Source: Kiritimatiellia bacterium (GTDB lineage Bacteria; Verrucomicrobiota; Kiritimatiellia; CAIVKH01). From it: a stretch of 64,000 nucleotides of DNA. Below, piece by piece: positions 1,751-22,309 of the stretch (its first letter is position 1; every line of letters starts with the position of its first letter). A program made the translations under genes and the position numbers. The stretch is from assembly GCA_035327585.1 (NCBI GenBank), contig DAOLDD010000013.1, positions 5,174 to 69,173 of the forward strand. The letters are read 5' to 3'. The notes under the pieces were generated by a model. The model made no database searches, was not told the DNA's origin, and was given only the letters and a program-made list of their open reading frames with translations.

Positions 1751-1853
1751 ATTTCACCACGGAGAACACGGAGGCACGGAGTGGATATCGCTGGGTCTCT
1801 ACCCCCAAAAGAAATTATTCCTCTCCGTGAACTTCGTGTCTCCGTGGTGAATT
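1751..1853. repeat. ~100-bp miniature inverted-repeat element built from CACGGAG units
   Basis: TTCACCACGGAGA (1753-1765) pairs with TCTCCGTGGTGAA (1839-1851). Left arm has CACGGAG at 1758, 1767 and 1775; right arm has degenerate inverse units. Confidence 0.8.
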
Positions 1854-1911
1854 TTCTTCTCCCCGCCAAATCCCGCTTGACGGGGCGGGGGAATGGCGGT
1901 AAAGCTAAAAG

Positions 1912-1927
1912 CAGACTAAATAGTCTG
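1912..1927. promoter_or_regulatory. Palindromic operator candidate upstream of the Rrf2 gene
   Basis: CAGACTA-AA-TAGTCTG is a perfect 7-2-7 palindrome 7 nt before the ATG, just downstream of TTGACG-N17-TAAAGC (1877-1905). Confidence 0.7.
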
Positions 1928-1934
1928 AATTCAA

Positions 1935-2372
1935 ATGTCCATCTTATCCACACGTTGCATTTATGCCCTGCGCGCCGTCATGCACACCGCGATGGCGACG
2001 CGGGAGAAACCGTACGTCTCGATCCGGGCGATGGCGAAGGAACTGGATATGCCGTTCCATTTCCTGACGAAGGTGTTGCAGGATCTGACGCGGCACGGGC
2101 TGCTGACCTCCAGCCGCGGCGTGGCGGGCGGCGTGGCGCTGGCGCGCCGGCCCGAGGACATCTCGCTGCTGTCCATCGTCGAACTGATGGAGGGCCCGGA
2201 GGTCTTCACCCGCTGCCTGCTCGGCCTGGAGGGCTGTGGCGACCGGAAGCCGTGCCCCCTGCACAAGAAATGGGCGGCGGAACGCAAGCGCCTGCGCGCG
2301 CTGTTCGCCCGCACCCGCCTGTCCGACATCACCCGCGGCCTGATGGCCCAAACCCTGCGCCTGGCGAACTAA
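1935..2372 (+). CDS. Rrf2-family transcriptional regulator with three Cys (Fe-S type)
   Basis: N-terminal wHTH ([23 protein letters not shown]...[13 protein letters not shown]) and C-terminal [17 protein letters not shown]. Confidence 0.92.
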
Positions 2373-2410
2373 TTCCATGTGCACATCCATCGCCAACCCG
2401 CTTCGCGTAA

Positions 2411-2433
2411 ATTCAGACAATAAAGTCTTTATT
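2411..2433. promoter_or_regulatory. Second copy of the AGAC-N6-GTCT operator upstream of nirK
   Basis: AATTC-AGAC-AATAAA-GTCT-TTATT has the same core and spacing as AGAC-TAAATA-GTCT-GAATT at 1913-1931. Confidence 0.6.
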
Positions 2434-2472
2434 CATTCATCGCCGATCGACAGCCACACGAGGAGAGCCGCC

Positions 2473-3945
2473 ATGAACCACACGACCACCCGAATTGGAA
2501 TCCGACTGCTGGCCGCGCTGGGCCTGTTCGCCCTGCCATGCGCGACCGCGCCTGCCGCGAAGGCGCCCGACCTGCCGCGTGAGGAGGCGGTGCTCACGGC
2601 TGCACCGCGGGTGCCGCCGCCCATCGCGCGACGCACGCCGGCGCACGTGGTGGTGAACCTGGAGGTGAAGGAGTTGGTGGGTCGCCTCGCGGACGGCGTG
2701 GAATACACCTTCTGGACCTTCGGCGGCACGGTGCCGGGACCCTTCATCCGCGTGCGCGAGGGCGACCATGTGGAGTTTTACCTGCACAATCATCCGGACA
2801 ACAAACTGCCGCACAACATCGACCTGCACGCGGTGACCGGGCCGGGCGGCGGCGCGGCGGCGTCCTTCACCGCGCCGGGGCACAGCTCCAAATTCAGCTT
2901 CAAGCCGATCAACCCCGGTCTCTACGTCTACCACTGCGCGACCGCGCCGGTGGGCATGCACATCGCGAACGGCATGTACGGCCTCATACTCATTGAGCCG
3001 GAATACGGCTATCCGCCCGTGGACCGGGAGTATTACGTAATGCAGAGCGAGTTCTACACGGAGGGCCAGTTCGGCGAACCGGGCCTCCAGACATTCTCGA
3101 TGAACAAGGCGCTGGACGAGCGGCCTGACTACGTGGTCTTCAACGGCGCCGTGGACGCACTGGCGGGCGACAACGCGATCCTCGCGCGCACCGGCGAGAC
3201 GGTGCGCCTCTACGTGGGCAACGGCGGGCCGAATCTGATCTCCTCGTTCCACGTCATCGGCGAGGTGTTTGACACGGTGTACATCGAGGGCGGCGACCGC
3301 GTGAACCACAACATCCAGACGACGCTGGTCCCGGCGGGCGGTTCGGCGATCGTCGACTTCAAATGCGAGGCGCCCGGCACGCTGGTCCTGGTGGATCACT
3401 CGATCTTTCGCGCCTTCAACAAAGGCGCGCTGGGCATGTTGAAGGTGGAGGGCGAGGCGAACCTGGAGATCTTCAGCGGCAAGCAGATGGATTCCGTCTA
3501 CCAGCCGGAAGGCCGCGCCCCGCCGAGCGAGGTGGCCGCGCCCGTCGCCGATCCGGGCCGTGAAATCACGCTGGCGGAACAGATGGCCGCGGGCGAGCGC
3601 GTCTACAAGCAGACCTGCCTTGCCTGCCACCAGGCCACCGGCCAGGGCATTCCCGGCGTCTTCCCGCCGCTGGCGAAGGCGGATTATCTCAACGCGGACC
3701 CGGACCGCGCCGCGGCCTATGTGATCTTCGGCAAACAAGGTCCCATCACCGTCAACGGCGTGCAGTACAACCAGATCATGACGCCGCAGACCGTCTCCGA
3801 CCAGCAGGTCGCCGACGTGCTGACGTATGTGTTGAACACCTGGGGCAATAAAGGCGGACGGATGACGCTCGACCGCGTGAAGGAAATCCGCGACGGCGGC
3901 CCCGAACCCTACGGCGCCGGCCTCGGCCCTGGCGGAGGGCACTGA
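2473..3945 (+). CDS. nirK: Copper-containing nitrite reductase with fused C-terminal cytochrome c
   Basis: Type-1/type-2 Cu ligands [28 protein letters not shown] and DHS; C-terminal CLACH heme motif. AGGAG RBS at 2461 favours ATG 2473 over the track start at 2377. Confidence 0.95.
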
Positions 3946-4013
3946 TCGGTGCGGTGAAATGAAATTTCTTCCAACCACCCGCTGCGCCCCCACCCCCGCC
4001 GGACAGGCGGGCT

Positions 4014-4080
4014 GTAGTTCCGGCGCTCCGTCGCCGGAATCCCCGGCCCGGGAACTCCGGCGGCAGAGCGCCGGAGCTAC
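4014..4080. repeat. GTAG-type REP doublet (REPIN-like), family A
   Basis: GTAG-TTCCGGCG-CTCCGT-CGCCGGAA, then a spacer, then the inverted copy CTCCGGCG-GCAGAG-CGCCGGAG-CTAC. Confidence 0.85.
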
Positions 4081-4118
4081 AACGCCCCGCCCGCGTAATC
4101 CGCGCTTAAGAAAAAGAG

Positions 4119-4150
4119 ACCGCAGATGACACAGATATCACAGATGAAAT
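4119..4150 (+). repeat. 9-nt-period C(G/A)CAGAT array (single arm)
   Basis: CGCAGAT 4121, CACAGAT 4130 and CACAGAT 4139; overlaps the start of the next gene. Confidence 0.7.
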
Positions 4151-4929
4151 TTCGTTGGCGCATGCGCTGCATGGTCCTGCTGGCGGCCGTTTGCGCGGGG
4201 GGGGCTCGGGCGGAGTTCGTCCGCGTCGATGCGGGCGTGCACCAACCGCTGTTTAGCAACGAGGCGGCGCAGCCGGTGGCGGCGTTCTGGCTCGCCGACG
4301 CGCCGGTGACGAATGGCGAATTCCTGGAGTTCGTGCGTGCGGAGCCGCGCTGGCGCCGCTCGCGCGCCGGACGCCTGTTCGTCGACGAACGCTATCTCTC
4401 GCATTGGGCCGACGATCTTTTCCTGGGGACCAATGCACCAGTGGACCATCCGGTGACCCATGTGTCCTGGTTCGCCGCGCGCGCCTACGCCCGATGGAAC
4501 GGCGCGCGGCTGCCCACGCTCGCGGAGTGGGAATGGGCGGCGGCGGCGAGCGAGACGAGCAGCGACGGCCGCAGCGACACCAATTTCCTGCCGCGCATCC
4601 TGAACTGGTACAGCCGCCCCGCGAGCACCGGCACACGGCCTGTGCGCAACACGTTCCGCAACGTCTGGGGCGCGTGGGACCTGCACGGGCTGGTGTGGGA
4701 GTGGGTGGAGGATTTTAATACCGCGCTGGTTACCGGTGAATCGCGGGCGGATTCCGCGCTGGAGCGACCGCAATTCTGCGGCGGCGGCGCGGCGGGCGCG
4801 GCCGATGTCGGAAACTATGCCGCCTTCATGCGCTACGCCTTCCGCGGCAGCTTGCATGCCCGCTCCACCGCCTCGTCCCTCGGCTTCCGCTGCGCGCGGG
4901 ACGCGGATACCGGGGAATCCATGCCATGA
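4144..4929 (+). CDS. Formylglycine-generating-enzyme (SUMF1/FGE-sulfatase) domain protein, NirV-like
   Basis: PVTNGEFLEFV, HPVTHVSWFAARAYA, RLPTLAEWEWAA, DLHGLVWEWV and GFRCA motifs; signal peptide; lies directly after nirK. Start uncertain (4126, 4144 or 4162). Confidence 0.88.
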   Translation: MKFRWRMRCMVLLAAVCAGGARAEFVRVDAGVHQPLFSNEAAQPVAAFWLADAPVTNGEFLEFVRAEPRWRRSRAGRLFVDERYLSHWADDLFLGTNAPVDHPVTHVSWFAARAYARWNGARLPTLAEWEWAAAASETSSDGRSDTNFLPRILNWYSRPASTGTRPVRNTFRNVWGAWDLHGLVWEWVEDFNTALVTGESRADSALERPQFCGGGAAGAADVGNYAAFMRYAFRGSLHARSTASSLGFRCARDADTGESMP

Positions 4930-5588
4930 ACACGCGCCCTGTAGACGCGCGCGTTGAGCGCGTTGTCCCAACGCGCCGCGGCGGCTTGGGCCAAGCCGCC
5001 CTACCTTTGCTGTGCTGCGTGTGGGCGCTTCTCGCGTTATGTGCGCACGCCGACTCCTGCTGCGCGTCGAAACCGGCGCCCGCGTCGGAAGAGGAAGCGC
5101 TGCCACTGGATTCGGTCTATCAGCTTGAATCGACCTGGACCAACAGCACTGGCGCGGCGCGGCCGATGGGCGACTTGCGCGGACCGCATCGCATCGTTGT
5201 CATGTTCTACGCCTCGTGCACATATGCGTGTCCAATGCTGGTGGCGGACCTGAAGAAAATCGAGGCGCGCCTGCCCGCGAAGCCCGGGGTGGTGTTCACG
5301 CTGTTTTCCTTCGACGACGAACGCGACACGCCGGCCGCGCTGGCGGCCTTCGCGGAGCGGCAGGGCATCGGCGCGCCGGGCTGGGAGCTGCTGACCGGCC
5401 CGCGTGAGGCGGCGCGCGAAATGGCTGCGGTGCTCGGCGTGCGCTATCGCAAGGAGTCCGGCGGCGCGATCGCGCATTCCAACGAAATTTCGCTGCTTGA
5501 TGGCGAGGGCCGCATCGTCGCGCGGCTCAAGGGATTGAACGAAGATCCGCAACCAATCCTGGAGGCATTGGCGCGCAGCGATGATTGA
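4926..5588 (+). CDS. SCO1/SenC family copper chaperone
   Basis: FYASCTYACP (CxxxC) and the conserved His in IAHSNEISLLD; ATGA overlap with the upstream gene. Confidence 0.92.
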   Translation: MNTRPVDARVERVVPTRRGGLGQAALPLLCCVWALLALCAHADSCCASKPAPASEEEALPLDSVYQLESTWTNSTGAARPMGDLRGPHRIVVMFYASCTYACPMLVADLKKIEARLPAKPGVVFTLFSFDDERDTPAALAAFAERQGIGAPGWELLTGPREAAREMAAVLGVRYRKESGGAIAHSNEISLLDGEGRIVARLKGLNEDPQPILEALARSDD

Positions 5589-5973
5589 ACCCGACCCCCG
5601 ACCTCTCGTGTATTCCTGCTCCGGTTGCTCCAGTGTGGCGCAGCTTGCGAATCGTATCGCCGTGAACCTCGACCGCGCGGGCCGCGCGGAAATGTCCTGC
5701 ATCGCGGGCGTGGGCGGCGGCGTGCGTTCGCTGGTCAAGACCGCGCAGTCGGGACGGCCGATCATCGCCCTCGACGGGTGTGCGCTGCAATGCACGCTCC
5801 ACTGCCTGCAGCGGGTGGGCGTGACGCCGCACACGCATCTGATCCTCACGACCTACGGCATCGCCAAGCGCGCGCATGAGGACGCGTCCTCCGAAGCGGT
5901 GGAGGCCATCGAAGCCGAAGTGACCGCCGATCTCGAAGCGCGCGGCCTGCTGATTCAGGAGGCGCCCGTATGA
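5581..5973 (+). CDS. Putative zinc-binding protein, DGC domain
   Basis: YSCSGCSSVAQLAN...MSCIAGVGG...IALDGCALQC. Confidence 0.85.
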   Translation: MIEPDPRPLVYSCSGCSSVAQLANRIAVNLDRAGRAEMSCIAGVGGGVRSLVKTAQSGRPIIALDGCALQCTLHCLQRVGVTPHTHLILTTYGIAKRAHEDASSEAVEAIEAEVTADLEARGLLIQEAPV

Positions 5974-7160
5974 ACGCCCCGGCACGGGTGCGCTGGCGCG
6001 ATGCGGAACCGTACCGCCTGCTGTTTCTGCTCGGCGCGTGGCTGGGCGTCGCGGCGGTGGCACTGTGGCCGCTGTTCGTTTACGGGGCGATCAAGACGTA
6101 TCCGGGCGTCGCCCATGCGCGGGTGATGATCGAGGGGTTCGCCGCGTGTTTTGTGCTCGGCTTCCTCGGCACCGCGCTGCCGCACATGCTGGAGGCGCCC
6201 CGGTTTACGTTCGCCGAGGTATTGGTTCTTCTCGCGGGCCTGTTCGGCGCGAGCGCGCTGCATTTCGCGGCGCTGCACCCGGCGGGCGACATGGTATTCG
6301 CGGCGACGCTGTTGTTCTTCATCGCGGGCGCGGGATGGCGCGCGGCGCGTCGGAAGGATCGCCCTCCGCCGGGGCTGTTCGCCGTGCTGCTCGGTTTGTT
6401 GTGCGCGGTGTGCGGCGCGCTGGCACAGGCGTTGTATCCGTGGACGAATCTTCCGCCGTTCGTGCATCCGTTCAGCAAGTTGTTGCTTTACCAGGGATTC
6501 CTGTTGCTGCCGGTGCTGGGCGTGGGCGCGTACATCCTGCCGGTATTCGTCGGCTATCCGCGCCGCCAGTCGCCGGTGGCGTTGGCGCAGGCGCCGCGCG
6601 CGTGGGAGCGGGAGGCCGCAGCGCTTGTATTGTTCGCGGTGGGCCTGCTGGCGAGCTTCGCGATGGAGGCGCTGGGTCAGGCGCGCGGCGGGTATGCCGT
6701 CCGGCTCGCGCTGCTCTGCGCGTTCCTGTTCCGTTCGCTGCCGGTGCACCGGCGACAGCAGAATCCCGGCGCCATGGCGTGGATCACGCGGCTGGCGCTG
6801 CTGGCGTTGCCGGTCGGCTATGCCTGTCTCGCCGCGTGGCCGTCCGCGCCGCTCGCGTGGCTGCACATTGTGTTCATCAGCGGACTCGGCTGGTTGATCC
6901 TCTCGGTCGCGACCCGCGTCATCGTTGCGCACGGCGGGTTCCAGCACCTCTTCGGCGCGCGCTGGCCGATGCTCTGGTGGGTCTTCGGCCTCGTGACGCT
7001 GGCGATGGCGACGCGCGTATCGGCGGACTGGATGCCGGACAGCCGGTTCAACCACTACGCCTACGCCGCGCTGAGCTGGATCGCCGGCGTCCTGCTCTGG
7101 CTGGGCGCGATGCGGCGGTTCCTGTTCGCCGCCGATCCGGCGGCTTCCGGCCCCAGGTAG
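5970..7160 (+). CDS. nnrS: NnrS family membrane protein
   Basis: EPYRLLF...HARVMIEGF...GFLGTALP...LHIVFISGLG...TRVIVAHGG; about 12 hydrophobic segments; lies in the nirK cluster. Confidence 0.88.
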   Translation: MNAPARVRWRDAEPYRLLFLLGAWLGVAAVALWPLFVYGAIKTYPGVAHARVMIEGFAACFVLGFLGTALPHMLEAPRFTFAEVLVLLAGLFGASALHFAALHPAGDMVFAATLLFFIAGAGWRAARRKDRPPPGLFAVLLGLLCAVCGALAQALYPWTNLPPFVHPFSKLLLYQGFLLLPVLGVGAYILPVFVGYPRRQSPVALAQAPRAWEREAAALVLFAVGLLASFAMEALGQARGGYAVRLALLCAFLFRSLPVHRRQQNPGAMAWITRLALLALPVGYACLAAWPSAPLAWLHIVFISGLGWLILSVATRVIVAHGGFQHLFGARWPMLWWVFGLVTLAMATRVSADWMPDSRFNHYAYAALSWIAGVLLWLGAMRRFLFAADPAASGPR

Positions 7161-8487: not shown

Positions 8488-9978
8488 TCAGGTGAGTTGG
8501 TAGTGCGGCGTGCTCATCAGGATGTGCAGGAGATCCCGGATCTGGGTGTTGGTGAACGGACCGCCCACGCGTTTCGCGAGGTACGTCTTGACCGCTTCCT
8601 GGTCCGCCTCCCGGAGCGGGGCCTGGAAGAGCACCCGCGCGAGGTGCGCGACGAGCTGGTCCGCGTCGCCCCGCACGGAGGCGGGCACGGCGAGGTCCGC
8701 GTCGACCGCCGGTTCCATCGTCGCGAGCGCCTTGATGATTTGCCCGCGCAACGGACCGCCGCCGGACAGCGCTTCATTCGGGCGACCCTGCGTCATTACG
8801 CGTCCGCCTTTCACGAGGAAGCCCGCGAGATTGTAGCGTTTGAGGAGCGTGTCCGCCGTGATCCAGGTATAGCCGCCGGGCCAGCCCTTGACGTTTGGCG
8901 GCTGGAACAGTTCCTGGCCGAGTGTGGCCAGGATGCCGGCGCACGCCTCGTCGGACGGCAGCGTGGCCTGCAGCATGCGCGTCGTGCCCGCGAGCCATTG
9001 CGCCGGACTCTTGATCTGCGTGCGCCGCGCCCGCTCACTGTAGAAGGCGCGGCTCCGGAACATGGCGCGCAGGACGGGCTTTAGTTCGAGCTGGTGTTTC
9101 ACGAACACCGCCGCGAGGGCGTTAACCACCTCCGGTTCCGGGTCGTCGTATGCGAAGAAACTCCACAGCTTCGCGCAGATGAACGGGGCCATCGCCGGTT
9201 GCTTAAGGATCAGGCGGACGGCGTCACCGCCGTTGAAGGCGCCGGTCTCGCCGAAGATCGTCTTGGCGCCGGTGTCGCGCAGACGGGGGCGTTCCATGAA
9301 GCGAAAAGCCTCCTGTTGCAGGCTCCACCCGCAAAACGCGCGCGCCGCGTTCTTGATGTCCTCCTCGGCATAGTTGCCCTCGCCGAGGGAGAACAGTTCC
9401 ATCACCTCGCGCGCGAAATTCTCATTCGGCTGCTTTGGGTTGCTGCGCGCATTGTCGAGATAGATCAGCATCGCCGGGTCCTGCGCCACCGCGACGACCA
9501 GCGCCTCGAAATTTCCCGCCGCGTGCGCGCGGAACGTCGTGTTCTGCAGGTACATCGGGTAGGCGAACCGCACCTTTTCGAAACTCGTCGCGAAGTGGCC
9601 GTGCCAGAACAGGGTGAGTTTTTCCTGCAGGGGGCGCGCGGTGTTGCGCATGCGAGCGAGCCACCAGCCGCGCGCGGCGATGATGCGCAGGGCCTCGGTT
9701 CGCCGCTCCTCGCGCTGGTATTCCTGCCGTTCCTCCCGCGTCATTCCCTGCGTGGCGCGGGGATCGGGCCTTGCGTCCGCGCCGTCTGCGGCCGCGAAGG
9801 CGGGCGGTTCAACCACATCCGGTATGGCCTCGAAATCGACCAGTCGGTCCACCGCCTCGCCAGGTGTCATCGCCGCCGTCGCGAGTATTTCGTCGAGCGT
9901 GCCGCCGAAACCCGCGCGGTTCACCAGGTGCGCGGCCAGGGTGGGGGACCAGTCTTCGCGTGGGAGCTCGGTTAACAT
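8488..9978 (-). CDS. DUF1800 family protein
   Basis: HLVNRAGFG, LQEKLTLFWHGHFATS, AMLIYLDN, PNENFARE.MELF and PPNVKGW; adjacent to its usual partner DUF1501. Start placed at the ATG at 9978 rather than the track start at 10026. Confidence 0.92.
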   Translation of the reverse strand: MLTELPREDWSPTLAAHLVNRAGFGGTLDEILATAAMTPGEAVDRLVDFEAIPDVVEPPAFAAADGADARPDPRATQGMTREERQEYQREERRTEALRIIAARGWWLARMRNTARPLQEKLTLFWHGHFATSFEKVRFAYPMYLQNTTFRAHAAGNFEALVVAVAQDPAMLIYLDNARSNPKQPNENFAREVMELFSLGEGNYAEEDIKNAARAFCGWSLQQEAFRFMERPRLRDTGAKTIFGETGAFNGGDAVRLILKQPAMAPFICAKLWSFFAYDDPEPEVVNALAAVFVKHQLELKPVLRAMFRSRAFYSERARRTQIKSPAQWLAGTTRMLQATLPSDEACAGILATLGQELFQPPNVKGWPGGYTWITADTLLKRYNLAGFLVKGGRVMTQGRPNEALSGGGPLRGQIIKALATMEPAVDADLAVPASVRGDADQLVAHLARVLFQAPLREADQEAVKTYLAKRVGGPFTNTQIRDLLHILMSTPHYQLT

Positions 9979-10040
9979 AACAGGATGTATAACGATATAT
10001 TCGAGCAGATTATTGTCGATGATCAATTCGAATCATGTGG

Positions 10041-12260
<2,220 letters not shown>

Positions 12261-12280: not shown

Positions 12281-12464
12281 CCTCGTCATCGTCCTCCTCG
12301 TCCTCAATTCGGAATATTTACCACGGAGTACACGGAGGCACGGAGAGAGGAGAACGAGGGACCGCGGATTAATCCGCGTTAATCCGTTTAATCGGCGGTC
12401 AAATCTACCTCTTCTTACGCAATGGCATTCGACAATGAGAACGACGACGAGTACGAGGACGAAG
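12281..12464. repeat. Nested repeat element in the divergent yyaL/amidase intergenic region
   Basis: Outer inverted hexamer arms ((C/A)TCGTC units at 12282-12308; GAC/GAG-type hexamers at 12431-12463) enclose a CACGGAG x3 arm (12322-12345) and an AATCCG-type arm (12361-12400). Confidence 0.7.
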
Positions 12465-12521
12465 TGGGGACGAAATCTGCTCGTGTCCGGCGGGGCTGCA
12501 TCTAGAATGACCGGCCTTGCT

Positions 12522-13508: not shown

Positions 13509-14410
13509 AAAAGCAAACTGTTCGTCCGTCCGCGAACTTCACGTGGGGCCGCCCGCTGCACCTCAAGTACTACATGTTCGATTGGGACGACAATATCCTG
13601 CACATGCCGACGCGGATTCACCTCGAGAAGAAAACCGCGAGCGGCTGGGCGCCGTACGACGTGTCGACCGCGCAATTCGCGCGCATCCGGCGCACGATGA
13701 AGAACTGCCGGCCGCTGGGCGATGACTGGGATCGCGCGTTTTCCGATTTCTACGACGTGGGTCGGCGCGGCGTGGAGGCCTTCCTCGACGACACGCGCAA
13801 GGCGTTGCGTCCGATTATCAAAGGCGAAGCGCGCGGCGCGCCGAGCTTCCAGAAATTCCGCAAGGCGCTGGTCGAGGGACGCCTGTTCGCCATCATCACC
13901 GCGCGCTCCCATAGCGCCGCCGCGATCCGCAAGGGCGTCGAATATTTCATCAAGCGCGTGCTCACGCCCGCCGAGATGGCGGAGATGCTCGCCAACCTGC
14001 GCGGCTACATCGCCTATTTTGACGGCGATCCCGGGGCCCTGTCCGACCGGCAGGTGCTCAAGCAATACCTCGACCTCTGCCGCTATCGCGGGGTGACCTC
14101 GCCGGAGTTCCAGCAGTTGATGGGCCGCAAGCTCGGCGGTTCGGAGAGCCCCGAGGAGGCGAAGCAGTTCGCCATTCGCGAATTTGTGCAGCACGCCATC
14201 GGTCTCGTGCGCGGCGGCAAAAAGGTGGCGAAGATCAGCATCGGGTTCTCGGATGACGACCGGAAAAACATCGAGGCCGTCGAGGAGTTCATCCGCCACG
14301 AACTGGGCCGCGAGTATCCCGGCGTCAAATTCGTCGTCTACGACACCTCCGATCCCCGCCGTCGCGCCGGCCGGAAAATCGTGATCAAGCGGGAGGCGGG
14401 GAAAGCCTAG
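13505..14410 (+). CDS. HAD-superfamily hydrolase-like hypothetical protein (FDWDDN type)
   Basis: Motif I FDWDDNI, motif II IITARSH, a candidate motif III Lys and motif IV GFSDDD; ATGA overlap with the amidase stop. Confidence 0.65.
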   Translation: MKKQTVRPSANFTWGRPLHLKYYMFDWDDNILHMPTRIHLEKKTASGWAPYDVSTAQFARIRRTMKNCRPLGDDWDRAFSDFYDVGRRGVEAFLDDTRKALRPIIKGEARGAPSFQKFRKALVEGRLFAIITARSHSAAAIRKGVEYFIKRVLTPAEMAEMLANLRGYIAYFDGDPGALSDRQVLKQYLDLCRYRGVTSPEFQQLMGRKLGGSESPEEAKQFAIREFVQHAIGLVRGGKKVAKISIGFSDDDRKNIEAVEEFIRHELGREYPGVKFVVYDTSDPRRRAGRKIVIKREAGKA

Positions 14411-14434
14411 CGGCTTGCCCTGCCTATCGTAAGC

Positions 14435-14509
14435 CGTTCGCGTTCACGTACCCGTACACGCTCCTGGCTTTCGTGATCGTGAACGTGTACGTGAACGTGA
14501 ATGAGAACG
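14435..14509. repeat. Hairpin of inverted hexamer arrays (CGTTCA/CGTGAA), copy 1
   Basis: CGTTCG CGTTCA CGTACC CGTACA CGCTCC ... CGTGAT CGTGAA CGTGTA CGTGAA CGTGAA TGAGAA. Confidence 0.8.
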
Positions 14510-14524
14510 GAAGGGTGGCGGGCC

Positions 14525-14552
14525 TTGAAATCGCGGGGCGGGGGTCTACACT
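14525..14552 (+). promoter_or_regulatory. Sigma70 promoter, probably leaderless
   Basis: TTGAAA-N16-TACACT, with the ATG at 14559 six nt downstream. Confidence 0.65.
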
Positions 14553-14558
14553 GCGGGC

Positions 14559-15602
14559 ATGTTTGAGCCTGTGACCGGGGAAATTTTCTTTCGCTGCACC
14601 GCGTGCCGCCGCCGCCTGGCGGTCGAGGCGCGCGCGCGCGGGCTCATGGTGGATTGCCCCGGCTGCCACGCTTCCCTTTTGGTGCCGGAACGCTCCACCG
14701 TAACGGACCCCGCCGTGGTGCGGCGCCGCTCGGCCCGTGCCTTCATGCTGATCGGCGGCCTGGCCTGTGGCGCAGCCGGCTGGTGGCTCGCGCGGGGTGG
14801 GGCGGAGGAAGCCGCTGCCGTCGCGCCGGCGCAACCCGCTGTTCGCGAATTGAGCAACCCGCTGCGCGAAGCGCTGGCCGCGCGTTCGAAGACCGGCGCG
14901 TCTTCGGAGCGGGCGCTGGCTGATGCGCGGGCGCTGGAACAGGAATATTCCCATCTCCAATCCGCGCACCGCGCGGTGAGCCGGCAGTACGAGGATCTCG
15001 CGAACTGGGTGCTCACCAACCTGCGTGGACGCTTCCTGCTGAAGGACCGGCATGTCGGCCGCCTGCGGTTCTCACCGGTCGGCGAGGATTATTCCGTGCA
15101 CCCGGACCTCGCCGATTTCCTCGCGGTGAACGAGCAGGAATCGGGCTTGATGCAGGACCTCTTGCAGTATGGACGCGCGGCGCTGCTCGGTTTGCAGCGG
15201 CAGTACGCCGTCACGACGCAGGCCGCGCCCGGCCAGGTCTCCGTCTACATCCCTCCCTTCGATCGCGAAGGCGCCGCGCTGCGCGAAGACCTCTACAGCG
15301 GCCTGCAAACCGTGCTCGGCGCGGATCGCTTCAACCGCATGATCGCCGTGGGCGAGGAGGAGCTCGTCCGCGCCTACGACTACTTCGGCGCCGCCGCGCG
15401 CACGCTTGTGTTCGAACTCGCCATGGACCCCGCGGTTTCCAAACAGCCGTACCTCGTGATTCGAGACGGCTGGGTGATTCCGAAGGACGCGTCGCGCCGC
15501 GTGACCGAAACAACCGAGGAAGCCGTCACCGAACTGCCCCCTCGCTACAACGCCTACCTCCCCCTCCTGCCCGAATTCGTGGCCACCTATGCCAAACCCT
15601 GA
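14559..15602 (+). CDS. Hypothetical bitopic membrane protein with N-terminal zinc ribbon
   Basis: CTAC...CPGC zinc ribbon, one TM helix (FMLIGGLACGAAGWWLA) and a coiled-coil-like segment. Confidence 0.65.
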   Translation: MFEPVTGEIFFRCTACRRRLAVEARARGLMVDCPGCHASLLVPERSTVTDPAVVRRRSARAFMLIGGLACGAAGWWLARGGAEEAAAVAPAQPAVRELSNPLREALAARSKTGASSERALADARALEQEYSHLQSAHRAVSRQYEDLANWVLTNLRGRFLLKDRHVGRLRFSPVGEDYSVHPDLADFLAVNEQESGLMQDLLQYGRAALLGLQRQYAVTTQAAPGQVSVYIPPFDREGAALREDLYSGLQTVLGADRFNRMIAVGEEELVRAYDYFGAAARTLVFELAMDPAVSKQPYLVIRDGWVIPKDASRRVTETTEEAVTELPPRYNAYLPLLPEFVATYAKP

Positions 15603-16314: not shown

Positions 16315-16321
16315 GCTACCC

Positions 16322-16380
16322 CTCCGGCGGCGGAGCGCCGGAGCTACAGCCCCTGTAGTTCCGCCGCTCTGTCGGCGGAG
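16322..16380. repeat. GTAG-type REP doublet, family A (GTAG ends facing inward)
   Basis: CTCCGGCG-GCGGAG-CGCCGGAG-CTAC ... GTAG-TTCCGCCG-CTCTGT-CGGCGGAG, between convergent genes. Confidence 0.85.
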
Positions 16381-16416
16381 ATTCGGGAGAATTCGTCTCC
16401 ATTCGTGGTTAAAAAA

Positions 16417-17262: not shown

Positions 17263-17341
17263 ACCGCGCCGAATGTACGCCAGCGCGCGCCCGATTGCAT
17301 ATTTGTTTTCCGCCACGGCGGACGTGGGTATTCTTAAAGAT

Positions 17342-17755
17342 ATGAAATCCCTGCTATCCGCCCTTTGCCTCTCCCTCGGCGTTACCCTCGCGCAAGCCGC
17401 AGCCCCGGCCCTCGTCGAGGTCGTCGACACGCTTGCGCCATCCAACGCGCTGAACGTCGTCACCTATTCCGCCCCGCGCGCCGTCTCGATCGCGGAACTC
17501 GGACTGGACGCGCTGCACGCCGGCGTCGCGATCATGGTGGCCGACGAAATCCGCATCTTCGCGAGCCGCGACGCGATGGACGCCTCGCCGAAGGCGCGAC
17601 TCTGGCGCAACGCGCGCGAGGGCAATCGCTGGTGGTACCAAACCGGCGGCGTAGGAAGCGCCGAGGGCCATGTCGTGCAACCCGGCGAAGTCATCGTCGT
17701 CGTAACCCGCGCCTCCACGCAGCCCATCGCTTGGAAGAACCCGCTTTCGCCGTAA
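17342..17755 (+). CDS. Small secreted protein homologous to the C-terminal domain of the two giant proteins
   Basis: Signal peptide MKSLLSALCLSLGVTLAQA; LNVVTYSAPRAVSIAELGL...ADEIRIF...VVQPGEVIVV...W aligns by eye with the giant-protein ends. Confidence 0.75.
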   Translation: MKSLLSALCLSLGVTLAQAAAPALVEVVDTLAPSNALNVVTYSAPRAVSIAELGLDALHAGVAIMVADEIRIFASRDAMDASPKARLWRNAREGNRWWYQTGGVGSAEGHVVQPGEVIVVVTRASTQPIAWKNPLSP

Positions 17756-17758
17756 AAT

Positions 17759-17804
17759 TTACAACGTCTGTAATTCCTTTTTTTGGGACTTACAACGTCT
17801 GTAA
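17759..17804. repeat. Direct pair of TTACAACGTCTGTAA (TTACA-N5-TGTAA palindrome)
   Basis: Identical 15-mers at 17759-17773 and 17790-17804, with 31-bp periodicity. Confidence 0.8.
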
Positions 17805-17833
17805 AACTGTTCTGATCGCAGCGGATACTCCCC

Positions 17834-17900
17834 CGTTCACGTTCACGTTACCGTTCACGGTTGTCGTGTACGTGTAGGTGTACGTGAACGTGAACGAGAG
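17834..17900. repeat. Hairpin of inverted hexamer arrays (CGTTCA/CGTGAA), copy 2
   Basis: CGTTCA CGTTCA CGTTAC CGTTCA ... CGTGTA CGTGTA GGTGTA CGTGAA CGTGAA CGAGAG. Confidence 0.8.
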
Positions 17901-17902
17901 AG

Positions 17903-19003
17903 CTACGGCGTGATGCGAATTTCACCAATCTTCGGCGCGCCGCCGGTGTCGTCGGCGGGGAAGGTCAGGAGCAGGAAGCGCGCGGTGACGGGTCCGCTTT
18001 CAAGCGCCTTGTTGAGATCTGGCCATTGCTCGGCGTCCATGCTGTAGAAGGGAAGCGCGTTGGTGATGCTGTGCTTGGCGTGCTGGATTTCCAGCGCGGA
18101 CAGCGTCAGCGGCGGATGGAACTCCGCAGCGAGCCACCAGCCGGCTTGGCCTTCGGCGCCGTCCCATTGCGTCGTCGTATCGCCGTCGAAGACGTGCCAC
18201 GCGTTGGTATTCGACACGGCGGAGCTGCTGGCGACGACGAGGATGGGGCGGGGCGTCGCGTCGGTGCTGTCGGCGGGCGCTTCGCGGTCAGCAAGCGCGG
18301 CGAGGCGAGTCTTGGCTTCCGCGCCGAGCGAGACGTGGTGCTCGACGGCCTGGCTTTCCTCGTAGAGCTGGCGGACTTCCTCGTCGTCGAGCGTGCGCGC
18401 GTAGATCAGTACATCGTCGATTGCGCCGGGGAAATAGCGCGCGTTCTCACTGTCGAAATGGCGGCCGATCTGGAAGTTCCCGGCGACGAACGAGTCGTCC
18501 TCCGTGTAGTCGCGTTCCGCGACGAGGGCGCCGTCCATGTAGACCTTGAGTTTTTCGCCGTAGGTGACGGCGACCTGGGTCCAGCGTCCCTTCGCGAAGG
18601 CGAAGTTGGCGACCATGTTCGCGTTGTAGGTGTTCGGGCCGGAGCCAATGACGTAGCTGTGGCCGAAGGCGTCGCCGATGCCGCTGTCGAGGATGGAGTA
18701 GGGGCGCAGGCCGGGGCGGTCGTCGAGGCGGAACCAGAAGGAGAAGCTGACGGGGAAGCGTTTGCCGCTCACCGGCGTCGCGGCATAGGCGCCCTGGCCG
18801 TCGAGCAACAGCGCGCCGTCCGGGTTGCCGTGCCGGTCGGTCGTGAATTCCGCGCCGACGAGCTGGGCGTGCTGCCCGCGCCCGCTGTGGTCGTCCGCGG
18901 TGCCATTGAAGAAATATGCCGCGAGCAGGTCCGCGCTGAAATCCGCGCGTGCGGTTGGGGCGAGCAGGGCGAAGCCGATGAACAGGGTGAAGAGTGTGCG
19001 CAT
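17903..19003 (-). CDS. Secreted LamG/concanavalin-like domain protein with C-terminal discoidin (F5/8C)-like domain
   Basis: [16 protein letters not shown]...[14 protein letters not shown]...WTQVAVTY...VYMDG...[13 protein letters not shown]; then [13 protein letters not shown]. Confidence 0.85.
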
Positions 19004-19087
19004 GTTGGGTCTCCCGTGGGATAGACAACTACCCCGCGGCGACGTTCAGGGCAAGGGGGGAATGAACATCGTCTGTGCTCGTTCGCT

Positions 19088-19153
19088 TTCCGCCGGCAGA
19101 GCGGCGGAACTACAGCAGAATGCGGTTGTAGCTCCGGCGCTCCGTCGCCGGAG
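19088..19153. repeat. GTAG-type REP doublet, family A
   Basis: TTCCGCCG-GCAGAG-CGGCGGAA-CTAC ... GTAG-CTCCGGCG-CTCCGT-CGCCGGAG. Confidence 0.85.
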
Positions 19154-19172
19154 AGGGAATGAACCACCTGGG

Positions 19173-19209
19173 CTCATTTCGTCATTGGTCATTGGGTCAT
19201 TCGCCATTA
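19173..19209 (+). repeat. Degenerate GTCATTG heptamer array upstream of leuS
   Basis: CTCATTTC GTCATTG GTCATTG G GTCATTC GCCATTA. Confidence 0.7.
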
Positions 19210-19223
19210 CTATCCACGCCCCT

Positions 19224-21680
19224 ATGCCGTATCCATTCGCACAACTTGAGCCGAAGTGGCAGGCCTGGTGGCTGGCCCACAAGACCTTCCGCACACCCGA
19301 CCAGCCGGACCCGGCGAAGCCGAAGTTCTATGCGCTGGACATGTTCCCGTATCCGAGTGGAGCGGGGCTGCATGTCGGGCATCCGGAGGGCTACACGGCT
19401 ACGGATATTCTGTGCCGCTACAAGCGGATGAAGGGGTTCAACGTGCTGCACCCGATGGGGTGGGACGCGTTCGGGCTGCCGGCGGAGCAGTACGCGATTG
19501 AGACGGGCACGCACCCGCGCGAGACGACGTATCGGAATATCGACCGGTTTCGCGCGCAGTTGCAGGCGATCGGGTTCTCCTACGACTGGGACCGCGAGTT
19601 CGCGACGACGGATGAGGACTACTACCGTTGGACGCAGTGGATTTTCCTCAAGCTCTACGAGAAGGGCCTCGCCTACCAGGCCGAGGTGCCGGTGAACTGG
19701 TGTCCCGCGCTGGGCACGGTGCTGGCGAACGAGGAGGTCATCGACGGCAAGTCGGAGCGCGGCGGGCATCCCGTCATCCGCAAGCCGATGCGCCAGTGGA
19801 TGCTGAAGATCACGGCCTACGCCGAACGCCTGCTCGAGGATCTCGAACTCGTCAACTGGCCCGAGAGCATCAAGGAGATGCAGCGGAATTGGATCGGGAA
19901 GTCGGAGGGCGCGGAGGTTCACTTCCAGGTCACCGGTCACCGCTCACCGATCACCGTCTTCACGACGCGTCCGGATACGTTGTTCGGGGCGACCTACATG
20001 GTGTTGTCGCCGGAGCATGCGCTGGTGGATGCGATCACGACGCCGGAACAGCGGGCGGCGGTGAAGGCGTATCAGGAGGCGGCATCGCGCAAGAGCGATC
20101 TCGAGCGCACGGAATTGCAGAAGACGAAGTCGGGCGTGTTCACGGGCGCGCATGCGATCAACCCGGTGAACGGCGAGCAAATTCCGATCTGGATCGCCGA
20201 CTACGTGCTCGCGGGCTACGGTACCGGCGCGATCATGGCGGTGCCCGCGCACGATACGCGCGACCACGAATTTGCGCAGACGTACAACCTGCCGATCCGT
20301 CCCGTGGTTGCCGAGGGTAGGGCGCGTTCGCCGAACGCGCCGGACGGCGGTTTCGGCGAAACCGCCCTACCTTTCGTTGGTGACGGATTTGCTGTCAATT
20401 CGCCCTTGATCGACGGGCTGCCGACGCCGGAGGCGAAGAAAAAGATCACCGCGTGGCTGGAGGAGAAAGGCCTCGGCGCGGCGCGCGTGAACTACAAATT
20501 GCGCGACTGGTTGTTCAGCCGCCAGCGGTATTGGGGCGAGCCGTTCCCTATTATTTTTGTCGATGGCGAGGCGAAGCCGCTGGGGCCGGACCAGTTGCCG
20601 GTGCGGCTGCCGGACGTGGCGACGTACAAACCGAGCGGGACGGGCGAAAGTCCGCTGTCCACGATCACCGAGTGGGTGAACACAACGGATCCGGCGACGG
20701 GCCGGTCCGCGGTGCGCGAGACGAACACGATGCCGCAGTGGGCGGGGTCGTGCTGGTACTACCTGCGATTCATCGACCCGAAGAATCCCGGCGCCCCGGT
20801 GGATCCGGCGAAGGAAAAATACTGGATGCCGGTGGACCTCTATGTCGGCGGCGCGGAACACGCGGTGCTGCACCTGCTGTATTCGCGGTTCTGGCACAAG
20901 GTGTTGTTCGACTGCGGCGTGGTGTCCACGAAGGAGCCGTTCCAGCGCCTCGTGAACCAGGGCATGATCCTGGGCGAGGACAACCAGAAGATGAGCAAGT
21001 CGCGCGGGAACGTGGTGAATCCCGACGACGTGATCAAGCAGTACGGCGCGGACGCGCTGCGGCTCTACGAGATGTTCATGGGGCCGCTGGAGGCGGTGAA
21101 GCCGTGGAGCATGCGCGGCGTCGAGGGCGTGTTCCGGTTCCTGAACCGCGTCTATCGGCTGGTGTGCGACGAGGAAACCGGCGCGTTGCTTCCCGCGGTG
21201 GCGGGGGAGCCGACGGTTGAGCAGTTGCGTCCACTGCACGCGATGTTGAAGAAGGTGGGGGACGACATTGAGGGACTGCGCTTCAACACGGCGATTTCCG
21301 CGATGATGGAATTCGTGAACGAGGCGCAGAAGTGGGAGCGTCGCCCGCGCGCGATTTTGGAACGGTTCGTCCTGGCGTTGAGCCCGCTCGCCCCGCATCT
21401 CTCGGAGGAGTTGTGGCAGAAGCTTGGCCACGACCAGAGTCTCGCCTACGAGCCGTGGCCTGCATACGACTCCGCGTTGTTGGTCTCGGACACCATGGAG
21501 ATTCCCGTGCAGGTGAATGGCAAACTGCGCGGCAAGATCGTGGTGCCCGTCGGCGCCGACCAGGACGCCATCGTCGCCGCCGCCCAAGCCGATGAGGGTG
21601 TGCAGTCGCATCTCGCGGGGAAAACGCTGCGCAAGACCATTTTCGTGCCCGGCCGGCTGTTGAATTTCGTGGTTTCTTAG
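19224..21680 (+). CDS. leuS: Leucine--tRNA ligase
   Basis: [14 protein letters not shown] (HIGH), [42 protein letters not shown] and [11 protein letters not shown] at 19224. Confidence 0.98.
19929..19956 (+). repeat. Four tandem NTCACCG heptamers inside leuS
   Basis: GTCACCG GTCACCG CTCACCG ATCACCG, translated as VTGHRSPIT. Confidence 0.8.
20316..20371. repeat. GTAG REP doublet (family B) in frame inside leuS
   Basis: GTAG-GGCGCGTTC-GCC-GAACGCGCC, spacer GGAC, then GGCGGTTTC-GGC-GAAACCGCC-CTAC. GTAG to CTAC is 54 bp, translated as [19 protein letters not shown]. Confidence 0.88.
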
Positions 21681-21686
21681 AAAAAA

Positions 21687-21716
21687 CGGAAAACAGGAAG
21701 ACGGGAAGACGGAAAA
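21687..21716 (+). repeat. Left 7/8-mer array of the four-helix-bundle cassette
   Basis: CGGAAAA CAGGAAGA CGGGAAGA CGGAAAA, starting 6 nt after the leuS stop codon. Confidence 0.85.
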
Positions 21717-21727
21717 AAGGGGGGGCG

Positions 21728-22267
21728 ATGAAGACCTTTGAGGACTTGCCGGTCTGGAAGGCGGGGCGGGAGTTGGTCCGGCGGGTCTACGGGTTTTCGC
21801 GCAAGATTTCCGACCCGGGGTTTTGCGAACAAATCCAACGCGCGGCGGTTTCCGTGCCGTCGAACATCGCCGAGGGCCATGAGCGGGGATCGACGCCGGA
21901 TTTGATCCACTTTCTTTTCATCGCGAAGGGCAGCACAGGTGAGGTGCGTTCGCAACTGTACAACGCGGAGGACCTCGGATATCTGGCTGCCGACGAGGCG
22001 CAGAACTTGCGGCAGGCGTGTCTCGATATCAGCCGTCAGCTCTCCGGCTGGATCCAGTCGATGCAGACGCCCAATTTCCGGGGAGGTCCCCGCCATCACA
22101 AGGAACCTGATCGCGCGTGGGACCGCTTCGTTGAGAAAGCCGGCCTCGAACGCCAGCCGGATGGGCGTTTCATCAAGGTGCGGGAAGCGGGTGTTGTGTA
22201 CGGAAAACGGAAGACGGGAAAACGGAAAACTGGAAAACGGAAGACGGAAGACATGAAGATGGAATAG
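21728..22267 (+). CDS. Four helix bundle protein (23S rRNA IVP / TIGR02436, Avd-like fold) with repeat-encoded basic tail
   Basis: FEDLPVWK...QIQRAAVSVPSNIAEGHERGS...FLFIAKGSTGEVRSQL...DLGYL; C-terminal GKRKT x3 encoded by the repeat array. Confidence 0.92.
   Translation: MKTFEDLPVWKAGRELVRRVYGFSRKISDPGFCEQIQRAAVSVPSNIAEGHERGSTPDLIHFLFIAKGSTGEVRSQLYNAEDLGYLAADEAQNLRQACLDISRQLSGWIQSMQTPNFRGGPRHHKEPDRAWDRFVEKAGLERQPDGRFIKVREAGVVYGKRKTGKRKTGKRKTEDMKME
22201..22259 (+). repeat. Internal direct 7/8-mer array at the 3' end of the four-helix-bundle CDS
   Basis: CGGAAAA CGGAAGA CGGGAAAA CGGAAAA CTGGAAAA CGGAAGA CGGAAGA CATGAAGA. Confidence 0.85.
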
Positions 22268-22278
22268 GTGCGCGGTTC

Positions 22279-22309
22279 TTTTTTCCGTCTTCCTGTCTTC
22301 CGTTTTCCG
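22279..22309 (-). repeat. Right (inverted) 7/8-mer array of the cassette
   Basis: Reverse complement is CGGAAAA CGGAAGA CAGGAAGA CGGAAAAAA, a near mirror of the left array. Confidence 0.85.

Follow-up and report, generated by a model that had tools for sequence, protein, structure and literature searches.

Inverted tandem-unit arrays around a four-helix-bundle gene, and gene-less array hairpins, in a Kiritimatiellia genome

The stretch of DNA analysed here (the window) comprises 64,000 nucleotides of a Kiritimatiellia bacterium. Between leuS and hppA it carries a gene for a four-helix-bundle (4HB) protein surrounded by degenerate CGGAARA arrays, and further arrays of short tandem units lie in the region before it (Table 1). 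Locating arrays with TRF and counting those whose period was 6-9 and whose copy number reached 2.8 or more, we found 11 in positions 1751-22309 (20.6 kb), compared with 0.84 +/- 0.98 (maximum 4) in 100 dinucleotide-preserving shuffles; the remaining 41.7 kb of the window holds 6. Thus, the arrays are present where the initial annotation of this DNA had put them, and they exceed what shuffled sequence yields. Its further claim, that all of them share one grammar, fits five of the nine listed sites, which have two inverted arms of tandem units (1751-1853, 12281-12469, 14434-14510, 17828-17902 and 21681-22309), and does not fit the other four. Within this window it is also correct that only the CGGAARA type encloses a gene.

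Table 1. Coordinates of the array-bearing features and of the enclosed gene
Feature	Position	Strand	Description
CACGGAG hairpin, gene-less	1751-1853	.	CACCACGGAG...CTCCGTGGTG arms, 3+3 units, period 8-9, 40-nt loop
Solo CGGAARA array	11310-11336	-	In yyaL (DUF255/thioredoxin-domain) CDS, read in frame
Nested element	12281-12469	.	yyaL/amidase divergent region; outer GACGAG-type arms 12281-12306 and 12437-12469
Within nested element	12320-12345		Solo CACGGAG left arm
Within nested element	12369-12397		TTAATCCGCG x3 array
Hexamer hairpin, gene-less	14434-14510	.	CGTTCA/CGTGAA-CGTGTA; between two co-oriented genes; z -5.7
Hexamer hairpin, gene-less, same type	17828-17902	.	Convergent junction, abuts Laminin_G_3 gene stop; z -5.7
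Cassette, complete	21681-22309		CGGAARA arrays around 4HB gene, between leuS stop (21680) and hppA (22429)
Left arm	21681-21721	+	Degenerate CGGAARA; begins 1 nt past leuS stop, ends 6 nt before 4HB ATG
4HB gene, 179 aa	21728-22267	+	PF05635 core of ~113 aa, conserved C-terminal extension, tail translated from middle array
Middle array	22200-22264	+	CGGAARA oriented like left arm; overlaps ORF 3' end (tail YGKRKTGKRKTGKRKTEDMKME)
Right arm	22276-22309	-	Inverted CGGAARA units (TTCCGTC on + strand)

Several other repeats were considered as elements and rejected. The GTCATTG array at 19169-19201 is direct: it lacks an inverted counterpart and does not fold (z +1.3). It is also conserved in L081, a syntenic, 88%-identical relative, where it precedes the leuS ATG. 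Within leuS, GGTCACC at 19928-19956 shows no length change relative to L081 or to the distant relative L009, and is conserved as VTG(H/L)RSPIT. CACAGAT at 4130-4145 amounts to two units only, at the start of an FGE-sulfatase gene, and the ACGTGA runs at 47969 and 48569, which fall outside the grammar, encode DVNVNVNGN in repeated domains.

The 4HB protein matches PF05635 over its full length (E 8.2e-29) and also TIGR02436 (E 1.3e-27). Segments 21691-21719 and 22278-22306 of the two arms are 90% complementary, and in both the minimum-energy and the centroid folds of the RNA a predicted stem of ~34 bp, in which the left arm pairs with 22276-22309, closes the ORF. The middle array and the right arm are predicted to form a local hairpin as well (-53 kcal/mol, z -7.2). 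Relative to L081, the dN/dS of the gene is 0.09 in the core, 0.03 in the C-terminal extension and 0.42 in the tail, values which indicate that the gene is functional and kept by purifying selection. Its dS is 1.06, vs 0.41 for leuS, an unexplained excess of 2.6 times. Among 4HB homologues, the C-termini are the same repeat in differing reading frames. The solo CGGAARA array in yyaL has 15 identical bases in common with the cassette right arm, and the protein loop that contains it is 4 residues longer than in PDB 7tkv; no relative's contig reaches this part of the genome. When arrays of this kind are translated, they add spurious lysine/arginine-rich tails to proteins, and they can also lie in frame within essential genes.

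Relatives display three states at the leuS 3' site. The full state is found in the window, L081, contigs of runs X4 and X7 and the distant L009; contigs of runs X5 and X6 have a hairpin only, in which position 21704 is joined to 22276 with 6 nt (AATAAT) between; and 74 of 80 distant leuS 3' ends have no array. All runs that contain the cassette sequence are DNA runs. The full, scar and empty states that the initial annotation had proposed to look for thus exist, as full and gene-less hairpin alleles at the orthologous site and as empty sites in distant relatives. Since the same site occurs with or without the gene, these appear to be elements that come and go rather than random repeats. The boundaries of the hairpin-only allele differ from those expected of simple recombination between the left and middle arrays, and so the choice between loss and insertion is a matter of parsimony only, with L009 as the outgroup. 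No target-site duplication was evident at the cassette or the hairpins, the empty sites of L081 not being alignable at base resolution. The idea of small-gene cassettes that insert and excise therefore stands in part: full and gene-less states occur, but neither an excision enzyme nor a target duplication nor any movement was observed.

The association of gene and array recurs widely. In 12 of the 12 loci examined from the same 4HB clade (the window, L081 and L001-L010), CGGAARA-type units adjoin the gene, which bears out the suggestion that these arrays are cognate to it. Where present, the arrays run in the + orientation upstream and at the ORF end and in the - orientation downstream; in one exception (L005) the upstream array is inverted. 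More distant 4HB clades in other phyla have the same layout with different 7-8-nt units. Of 80 PF05635 loci spread over many phyla, 70 have, beside the gene, an array with a period of 6-9 (mostly 7), and array density is 1.0 per kb beside PF05635 genes vs 0.135 per kb elsewhere in the same loci, a difference of 7.4 times. The upstream and downstream flanks have an inverted match of at least 14 in 40 of the 80 loci and in 0 of 58 controls, and the unit class tracks the 4HB protein tree (23 changes vs ~32 when shuffled). The same 80 loci contain 153 arrays that lie apart from any 4HB gene, and solo heptamer arrays occur at many intergenic sites, so some arrays may be unrelated to cassettes.

Such unattached arrays are what one would expect if the arrays were ordinary slippage-derived simple sequence repeats (SSRs) that form stabilising or terminator-like hairpins, with small genes inserting or surviving beside them and the gene-less hairpins never having been cassettes. 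Intergenic heptameric repeats include the STRR of Calothrix. In many bacteria, intergenic DNA is enriched in heptameric SSRs to which no function has been assigned (PMC4692102, PMC4679880), including GGGAATC of Xanthomonas and GGGGAYT of Nostoc (PMC4692102) and TAACTGA of Beggiatoaceae, Cyanobacteria and Bacteroidetes (PMC4679880). Like these, the arrays described here are tandem 7-nt intergenic units, often near start codons, whose number varies between relatives; unlike them, those of the window form inverted pairs around a 4HB gene with a clade-specific unit, and neither paper mentions PF05635 or four-helix-bundle genes. That L081 has different hairpins at the same junctions also fits with slippage. 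However, slippage alone does not predict the density of arrays beside PF05635 genes, nor a clade-specific unit in a fixed orientation. Furthermore, the arms are irregular in a correlated way, with the same odd units mirrored in both, which indicates selection for pairing or whole-arm duplication rather than independent unit addition, and no T-run follows the array hairpins. Together with the identical ends of the CACGGAG family described below, these observations make this explanation unlikely.

A different possibility is that the arrays are cis-acting binding sites for a 4HB oligomer that reads one 7-nt unit per subunit, and are regulatory (through autoregulation or the marking of RNA or DNA) instead of mobile, with gene-less arrays as further targets. 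The TRAP ring, which reads spaced triplets, is a model for such one-unit-per-subunit reading. Consistent with this notion, members of one protein clade share a conserved unit even when their hosts belong to different phyla, the unit changes from clade to clade, and some units are AT-rich although the genome is GC-rich. The median distance from array to start codon is 39 nt, and the yyaL gene, 10 kb off, has a solo cognate array. Array length is also suggestive: the median is 4.3 units (IQR 3.6-4.75, the lower bound on copy number being set by the TRF score threshold), and the Xanthomonas homologue is described as a homopentamer (Lin 2006, cited in PMC4990558). Binding sites by themselves leave unexplained both the inverted arm and the presence of full and hairpin-only states at one site, and as a complete account we regard this as possible but doubtful. 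It is compatible with a cassette explanation, and the two are not mutually exclusive.

The gene-less hairpin at 1751-1853, between a CopD-like gene and rrf2, is predicted to fold at -56 kcal/mol (z -9.5), and its 40-nt loop contains no ORF. Its family is widespread and mostly gene-less, with at least 120 loci in IMG/VR, and the ends CACCACGGAG...CTCCGTGGTG are identical across unrelated contigs, which argues for the spread of an element and against local slippage. A possible gene-bearing counterpart lies in L076, another Kiritimatiellota genome, where CACGAAG/CACAAAG arms (10823-10850 and 11290-11342), inverted as GCCACGAAGnnnCACAAGnnnCACGAAG...CTTTGTGGC, bracket a gene of the GxxExxY family (TIGR04256 / PF13366, PD-(D/E)XK-like). 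The two resemble each other in style, each having inverted arms of three CAC-core units, a period of 8-10, a purine-rich heptamer core beginning with CAC and a conserved outer end. They differ in that the window copies hold no gene: an HMM built on GxxExxY proteins had no match in the window or in 120 CACGGAG loci, and in IMG/VR a GxxExxY gene lay within CACGGAG arms in 0 of 23 arm pairs. One IMG/VR CACGGAG locus encloses an unrelated Zn-ribbon-like ORF.

The outer arms of the nested element are predicted to pair (-70.5 kcal/mol, z -3.3). Both hexamer hairpins are missing from L081, and no cognate gene for the hexamer type was found. At the position of the 14434-14510 hairpin most relatives' contigs have a shorter stretch instead, and at the equivalent of 17828-17902 L081 has a GTAG-type REP hairpin. 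That a REP stands where the window has a hexamer hairpin indicates that they stand in for one another rather than belonging to a single family. This bears on whether the hairpins could be REP/REPIN-like sequences mobilised by a Y1 (RAYT-like) transposase. A PF01797 Y1_Tnp gene is indeed encoded in the window (~28519-29424), and GTAG-footed, REP-like hairpins exist at 4006-4088, near 19130-19160 and in frame in leuS. These are sequence families separate from the array hairpins, which have neither the GTAG foot nor the compact stem of the REP-like set; the 4HB layout recurs in loci with no nearby Y1 gene, and the window Y1_Tnp gene is not linked to the arrays. We therefore consider mobilisation by this transposase very improbable. 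At a more general level, REP/REPIN with RAYT, and Ssn nucleases with NTS/SRM repeats (PMC11893778), likewise pair a small gene with a dispersed, mostly gene-free cognate repeat. Yet for the enzymes Ssn and RAYT, cleavage of their own repeat has been demonstrated, whereas no catalytic activity is known for the 4HB protein, and the repeats of Ssn and RAYT are single palindromes rather than arrays of tandem units.

The initial annotation had proposed iterative templated synthesis, besides slippage, as the source of the arrays; such synthesis could be the work of a reverse transcriptase (RT) or a telomerase-like enzyme. The units are degenerate, and PF05635, a family for which PMC10053308 is listed, includes Avd, the partner of the reverse transcriptase of diversity-generating retroelements (DGR). 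But no RT (RVT family) was called within 10 kb either side of the cassette or beside its syntenic counterpart in L081, no template-repeat/variable-repeat pair was found, and the degeneracy is mirrored between arms. Slippage also accounts for variation in array length, as between Coxiella strains (PMC4990558). The data lend this mechanism no support, and we give it hardly any credence.

ORF-bearing intervening sequences (IVS) occur in the 23S rRNA of Coxiella burnetii, in helix 45, and of Leptospira (Warrier et al. 2016, PMC4990558; Ralph & McClelland 1993). The Coxiella IVS contains an S23p ORF, a 28-bp stem cleaved by RNase III and a strain-variable number of tandem GACAGAT heptamers, and IVS have been proposed to be mobile, with no known enzyme (PMC4990558). 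The leuS-hppA cassette likewise has a PF05635/S23p gene inside a long stem of terminal inverted repeats and, as in Coxiella (GACAGAT x3), tandem heptamers just upstream of the ATG. It also seems to have no promoter of its own and to be carried on the host transcript. It differs in that it lies between protein-coding genes and not in a 23S rRNA helix, that its arms are longer arrays, with a third array within the ORF end, and that purifying selection maintains its gene, in contrast to the decay of the Coxiella ORF.

On balance, we think it probable that hairpin elements of a single class, with inverted tandem-unit arms, occur in the region as one complete member and several without a gene, the complete one being a non-ribosomal counterpart of the ORF-bearing 23S rRNA IVS. 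Specifically, a promoterless 4HB gene, lying in the space that separates the leuS stop from the hppA promoter region, would be co-transcribed with leuS. The arms would form the predicted ~34 bp stem and, by analogy with Coxiella, may be cut by RNase III; the insert would then be released from the host transcript, so that insertion in transcribed junctions would be harmless. As tandem-unit arms can pair in several registers, the stem would survive the gain or loss of units by slippage. Loss of the gene would leave a bare hairpin shell, and the CACGGAG, hexamer and GACGAG hairpins may have arisen in this way from other cassette families, or be gene-less relatives of them. New copies would, as our best guess, arise by recombination between arrays of the same unit rather than through a dedicated transposase. 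The initial interpretation as a whole is thus partly supported.

More speculatively, there may be parallel protein-and-repeat systems, in which 4HB oligomers would go with units of 7-8 nt and GxxExxY nucleases with CAC-core units of 8-10 nt, and the hexamers would have a partner of their own. Each protein clade would read its own unit, the 4HB pentamer at about one unit per subunit, and gene plus arms would make a cassette that insulates itself, takes up residence in transcribed junctions, those of rRNA among them, and decays to gene-less shells. We offer this as a tentative idea that is rather unlikely to hold in full.

To our knowledge, few bacterial protein families of unassigned function are larger than PF05635 ("23S rRNA IVS protein", Avd-like) and GxxExxY, and intergenic heptamer repeats have been noted since 1990 with no explanation that we know of. 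The window ties PF05635 to heptamer repeats through a selected gene, clade-specific arms and an orthologous site in full, shell and empty states. For annotators, spurious lysine/arginine-rich tails derived from arrays, and arrays in frame, call for caution. Collectively, these observations imply that the intervening sequences of rRNA may be one landing place of a much broader class of elements; if the parallel systems are real, they would provide two very large 'hypothetical' families with a function and account for the heptamer repeats of bacteria.

The initial annotation had described short-period repeat arrays, several of them paired as inverted arms, between positions 1751 and 22309 of the window, and TRF found arrays at the places it named. 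At a period of 6-9 and no fewer than 2.8 copies, we counted 11 arrays in this interval, while 100 dinucleotide-preserving shuffles gave 0.84 +/- 0.98 and never more than 4; the arrays are thus real and exceed chance. The remaining 41.7 kb holds 6 arrays of period 6-9. The window has a G+C content of ~65%, and the public runs that contain its sequence are activated-sludge metagenomes. The data comprise the window, loci from public collections and public-run contigs.

We find two inverted arms at five sites, all of which fold as single strands much more strongly than their shuffles, and inspection of the window sequence showed no T-run 3' of any of them. The proposal that all arrays share this one grammar held at these five sites and failed for four of the listed items. 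The GTCATTG run upstream of the leuS ATG, although kept in L081 (a syntenic, ~88%-identical relative), is a direct array without partner arm or fold (z +1.3). The GGTCACC run in leuS is unchanged in length relative to L081 and to the more distant L009, and is conserved as protein; CACAGAT amounts to two units only; and the ACGTGA runs at 47969 and 48569 are mere look-alikes that encode DVNVNVNGN in repeated domains. The TTCCGTC run in yyaL, on the other hand, is built of the cassette unit and is a true solo array: it has 15 identical bases in common with the cassette right arm, and its loop exceeds the one in PDB 7tkv by 4 residues. It may have arisen by insertion or by conversion, and contigs of relatives gave no coverage here. 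The observation on the arrays is thus partly confirmed.

Positions of arrays, genes and other features in the window, with fold z-scores of the two-inverted-arm sites
Feature	Position	Array orientation	Fold z
Two inverted arms, CACGGAG units	1751-1853		-9.5
GTAG-type REP-like hairpins, gene junction	4006-4088		
Solo TTCCGTC array in yyaL	11310-11336		
Two inverted arms, outer GACGAG type; solo CACGGAG arm and TTAATCCGCG array inside	12281-12469		-3.3
Two inverted arms, CGTGAA/CGTGTA hexamers	14434-14510		-5.7
Pair of TTACAACGTCTGTAA boxes with T-runs	17758-17806		
Two inverted arms, CGTGAA/CGTGTA hexamers	17828-17902		-5.7
GTAG-type REP-like hairpins, gene junction	~19130-19160		
REP-like doublet (two GTAGGGCG-footed hairpins), in frame within leuS	20316-20371		
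Cassette, two inverted arms, CGGAARA units	21681-22309		-7.2
Cassette left array	21681-21721	+	
Four-helix-bundle gene (PF05635/TIGR02436)	21728-22267		
Cassette middle array	22200-22264	+	
Cassette right array	22276-22309	-	
hppA region	22429-24870		
Y1_Tnp gene (PF01797, RAYT/IS200-like)	~28519-29424		

The complete cassette, between leuS and hppA, encodes a 179-aa four-helix-bundle protein. Its left array begins 1 nt past the stop codon of leuS and reaches to within 6 nt of the ATG, leaving a gap between the two genes smaller than a promoter. The middle array, oriented as the left one, makes up the final ~20 codons of the ORF; the inverted right array lies 12 nt downstream of the stop codon, and the hppA upstream region follows. 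In both the minimum-energy and the centroid RNA folds of 21676-22316, a left/right stem of ~34 bp encloses the entire ORF, in competition with a local middle/right hairpin (-53 kcal/mol). Compared with L081 (86% protein identity), dN/dS is 0.09 in the protein core, 0.03 in the conserved C-terminal extension and 0.42 in the array-encoded tail, with 0.08 for leuS. These low values show that the gene is kept by selection. Its dS against L081 8947-9486 is 1.06, 2.6 times that of leuS (0.41), with similar purifying selection on both; conversion- or transfer-type replacement and weaker codon bias are possible reasons.

The association of CGGAARA arrays with this gene family, which had been proposed from the single cassette, recurs elsewhere. 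CGGAARA units or their 8-mer variant CGGAAGAA adjoin the gene in 12/12 examined loci of its clade (the window, L081 and L001-L010), hosted by Verrucomicrobiota, Lentisphaerota and Kiritimatiellia MAGs. Where present, clade arrays read '+' ahead of the gene and over the end of the ORF, and '-' beyond it; in L005 the upstream array is inverted. More distant members (Nitrospirota, Acidobacteriota, Planctomycetota, Bacteroidota, CPR and others) keep the layout with different units, among them GATTTGA, AAATTTC, TTGAATT, GTGAGAAA and AGTTACG; some are AT-rich despite GC-rich genomes. Across 80 PF05635 loci, one genome per species, an array adjoins the gene in 70, most commonly with period 7 and with a median of 4.3 units; array density is 1.0 per kb beside the gene and 0.135 per kb elsewhere in the same loci. 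Upstream and downstream sequences share an inverted match of at least 14 in 40/80 loci vs 0/58 displaced controls. Unit class tracks the protein tree (23 changes vs ~32 after shuffling), a test that understates unit specificity because single-linkage grouping merged most AT-rich heptamers in one class. Homologues in other genomes end in KRKTGKRKT, TEDGKRKTEE, TENGKK or GRTE, which are one DNA repeat translated in different frames; the repeat is therefore conserved as nucleic acid, not as protein. A pattern search of IMG/VR for CGGAARA hairpins gave no match.

If such cassettes come and go, as the initial annotation supposed, orthologous sites should differ in state, and full, scar and empty states are all seen at the leuS 3' end. 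L081 and L082 have the cassette between leuS and hppA, as do contigs from runs X4 (1961 bp) and X7; in the distant L009 (LeuRS ~62% identical) a member of the same clade follows the leuS stop directly. In runs X6 (a 1684-bp contig, ~88% identical to the window in leuS) and X5, six letters (AATAAT, ATTAGT) separate 21704 from 22276, giving a shell of left arm, short loop and right arm without the gene. As a distant baseline we used 80 metagenomic leuS 3' ends found with the LeuS C-terminus in a scan dominated by a common 8-mer (relatives of 46-68% identity): 0/80 carry a four-helix-bundle or GxxExxY gene, 74/80 have no array, and 3/80 have heptamer arrays, one a GCGGARA-type hairpin. Locus L235 (~2860-2940; 58% identity in the C-terminal domain) has a gene-less GCGGARA heptamer hairpin right after leuS that could be an ancient shell of this site. 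Taking L009 as the outgroup, the most parsimonious history is loss of the gene in the X5/X6 allele. The breakpoints differ from those of simple left/middle recombination, however, which leaves room for independent insertion of the gene into a resident hairpin; parsimony makes this less likely than gene loss.

The gene-less hairpins vary as well. The window and L081 align at ~88% identity across 12.9-25.7 kb, with interruptions at intergenic elements: the first hexamer hairpin has no counterpart in L081, the position of the second is occupied there by a GTAG-type REP hairpin, and ahead of leuS the REP of the window gives way in L081 to a different hairpin, built of GAACATYG units. In contigs of other relatives, only 75 nt replace 14389-14574. 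The strict hexamer-hairpin pattern yielded one further locus in IMG/VR (L313), and no cognate gene was found for this type; a looser CGTGWA x3.5 pattern picked up, for the most part, plain microsatellites and coding sequence for RERE/VNVN runs.

The family to which the CACGGAG hairpin belongs is widespread. Its three-unit pattern occurs at no fewer than 120 IMG/VR loci, with conserved ends CACCACGGAG...CTCCGTGGTG, loops of 10-240 nt and numerous solo arms, often nested with CACGAAG, CGCAGAT or CTAACGGG arrays. Related phage-like contigs (L087, L088, L092), with CTAACGGG-type 9-mer arrays upstream of and directly beside a solo CACGGAG arm, are a further stacking of distinct arm families. None of the loci listed contains a four-helix-bundle or GxxExxY gene; clustering of neighbouring ORFs mostly grouped spurious high-GC ORFs and was set aside. 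A gapped pattern allowing a gene-sized interval matched 4 loci, 0/4 with GxxExxY; two fell by chance in phage genes and a third was weak. In the fourth, L231 (11-477), true CACGGAG-type arms surround an unrelated ORF of 142 aa, Zn-ribbon-like (weak Zn_ribbon_recom match, E 0.009) and encoded on the opposite strand, which suggests that one arm type can carry differing cargo.

CAC-type arms around a GxxExxY gene were verified in one example, the Kiritimatiellota locus L076, where the TIGR04256 gene lies between GCCACGAAG-CACAAG-CACGAAG and the inverse CTTTGTG...CTTTGTGGC. In style, these arms match the window CACGGAG hairpin. The LCVSCASLWPF tails of homologues are right-arm read-through. In IMG/VR, a single GxxExxY protein gave no match and an alignment only 7 distant loci. 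The same Pontiellaceae genome has, 500 bp away (9920-10375), a four-helix-bundle gene with GGTCGAAG 8-mer arms; an ExbD-like gene separates the two cassettes, both in one operon-like stretch.

Several other features lie among the arrays. The REP-like doublet adds 11 residues to leuS relative to L009 and is also in L081, its peptide slightly diverged. GTAG-type REP-like hairpins (GTAGYTCCGGCGCTCCGTCGCCGGA) occupy gene junctions in the window and in L081 (5085-5125), and at a given junction such a hairpin in one of the two can stand in for an array hairpin in the other. Their candidate partner is the Y1_Tnp gene, mapped from the annotation of L083 (a same-species assembly) and lying in a G+C dip (0.577 over 28-30 kb). 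The TTACAACGTCTGTAA boxes are kept in L081; many unrelated sludge and freshwater contigs pile up on them in a depth spike with loose ends at 17757/17806, so the motif is widespread. The hppA region is a single 813-aa H+-pyrophosphatase ORF, where L083 (10702-15603) and L081 have two tandem genes (680-683 and 851 aa); ~2.3 kb is missing from the window, indicating recombination between paralogues or assembly collapse.

The cassette resembles the Coxiella 23S IVS, in which an S23p (PF05635) ORF sits in a 28-bp stem that is cut by RNase III, with three tandem GACAGAT heptamers, variable in number among strains, ahead of the ATG (PMC4990558). By analogy, the window cassette would be co-transcribed with leuS, and its left/right stem would be a putative RNase III substrate insulating the host transcript. 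Because tandem-unit arms can pair in several registers, they would withstand slippage. Within a protein clade the units are conserved more than the stem alone needs, which suggests that the sequence is probably read by a factor; an oligomer of the four-helix-bundle protein is the obvious candidate. Iterative templated synthesis, suggested at first, found no support: no RT is called within 10 kb either side of the cassette in the window or near it in L081, and the two arms mirror each other's irregular units, pointing to selection for pairing or to whole-arm duplication. No target duplication is evident at the cassette or hairpins, and no enzyme of movement was found in the window or the fetched loci.

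Ssn nucleases offer a functional analogue, in that a small gene is likewise paired with a dispersed repeat of its own (NTS). Both cas operons, where they appear as scattered inserts, and the rRNA insertions of CPR are known locations of PF05635 genes. In a full-text search, no paper was found that ties heptamers or tandem repeats to PF05635, TIGR02436 or the IVS protein outside rRNA, and the protein goes unmentioned in papers on heptamer repeats. Collectively, our data support part of the original interpretation, in the form of a non-ribosomal variety of IVS-type cassette, accompanied by gene-less shells. The window contributes an orthologous series of full, shell and empty sites, an estimate of selection, and three arm families resident together.
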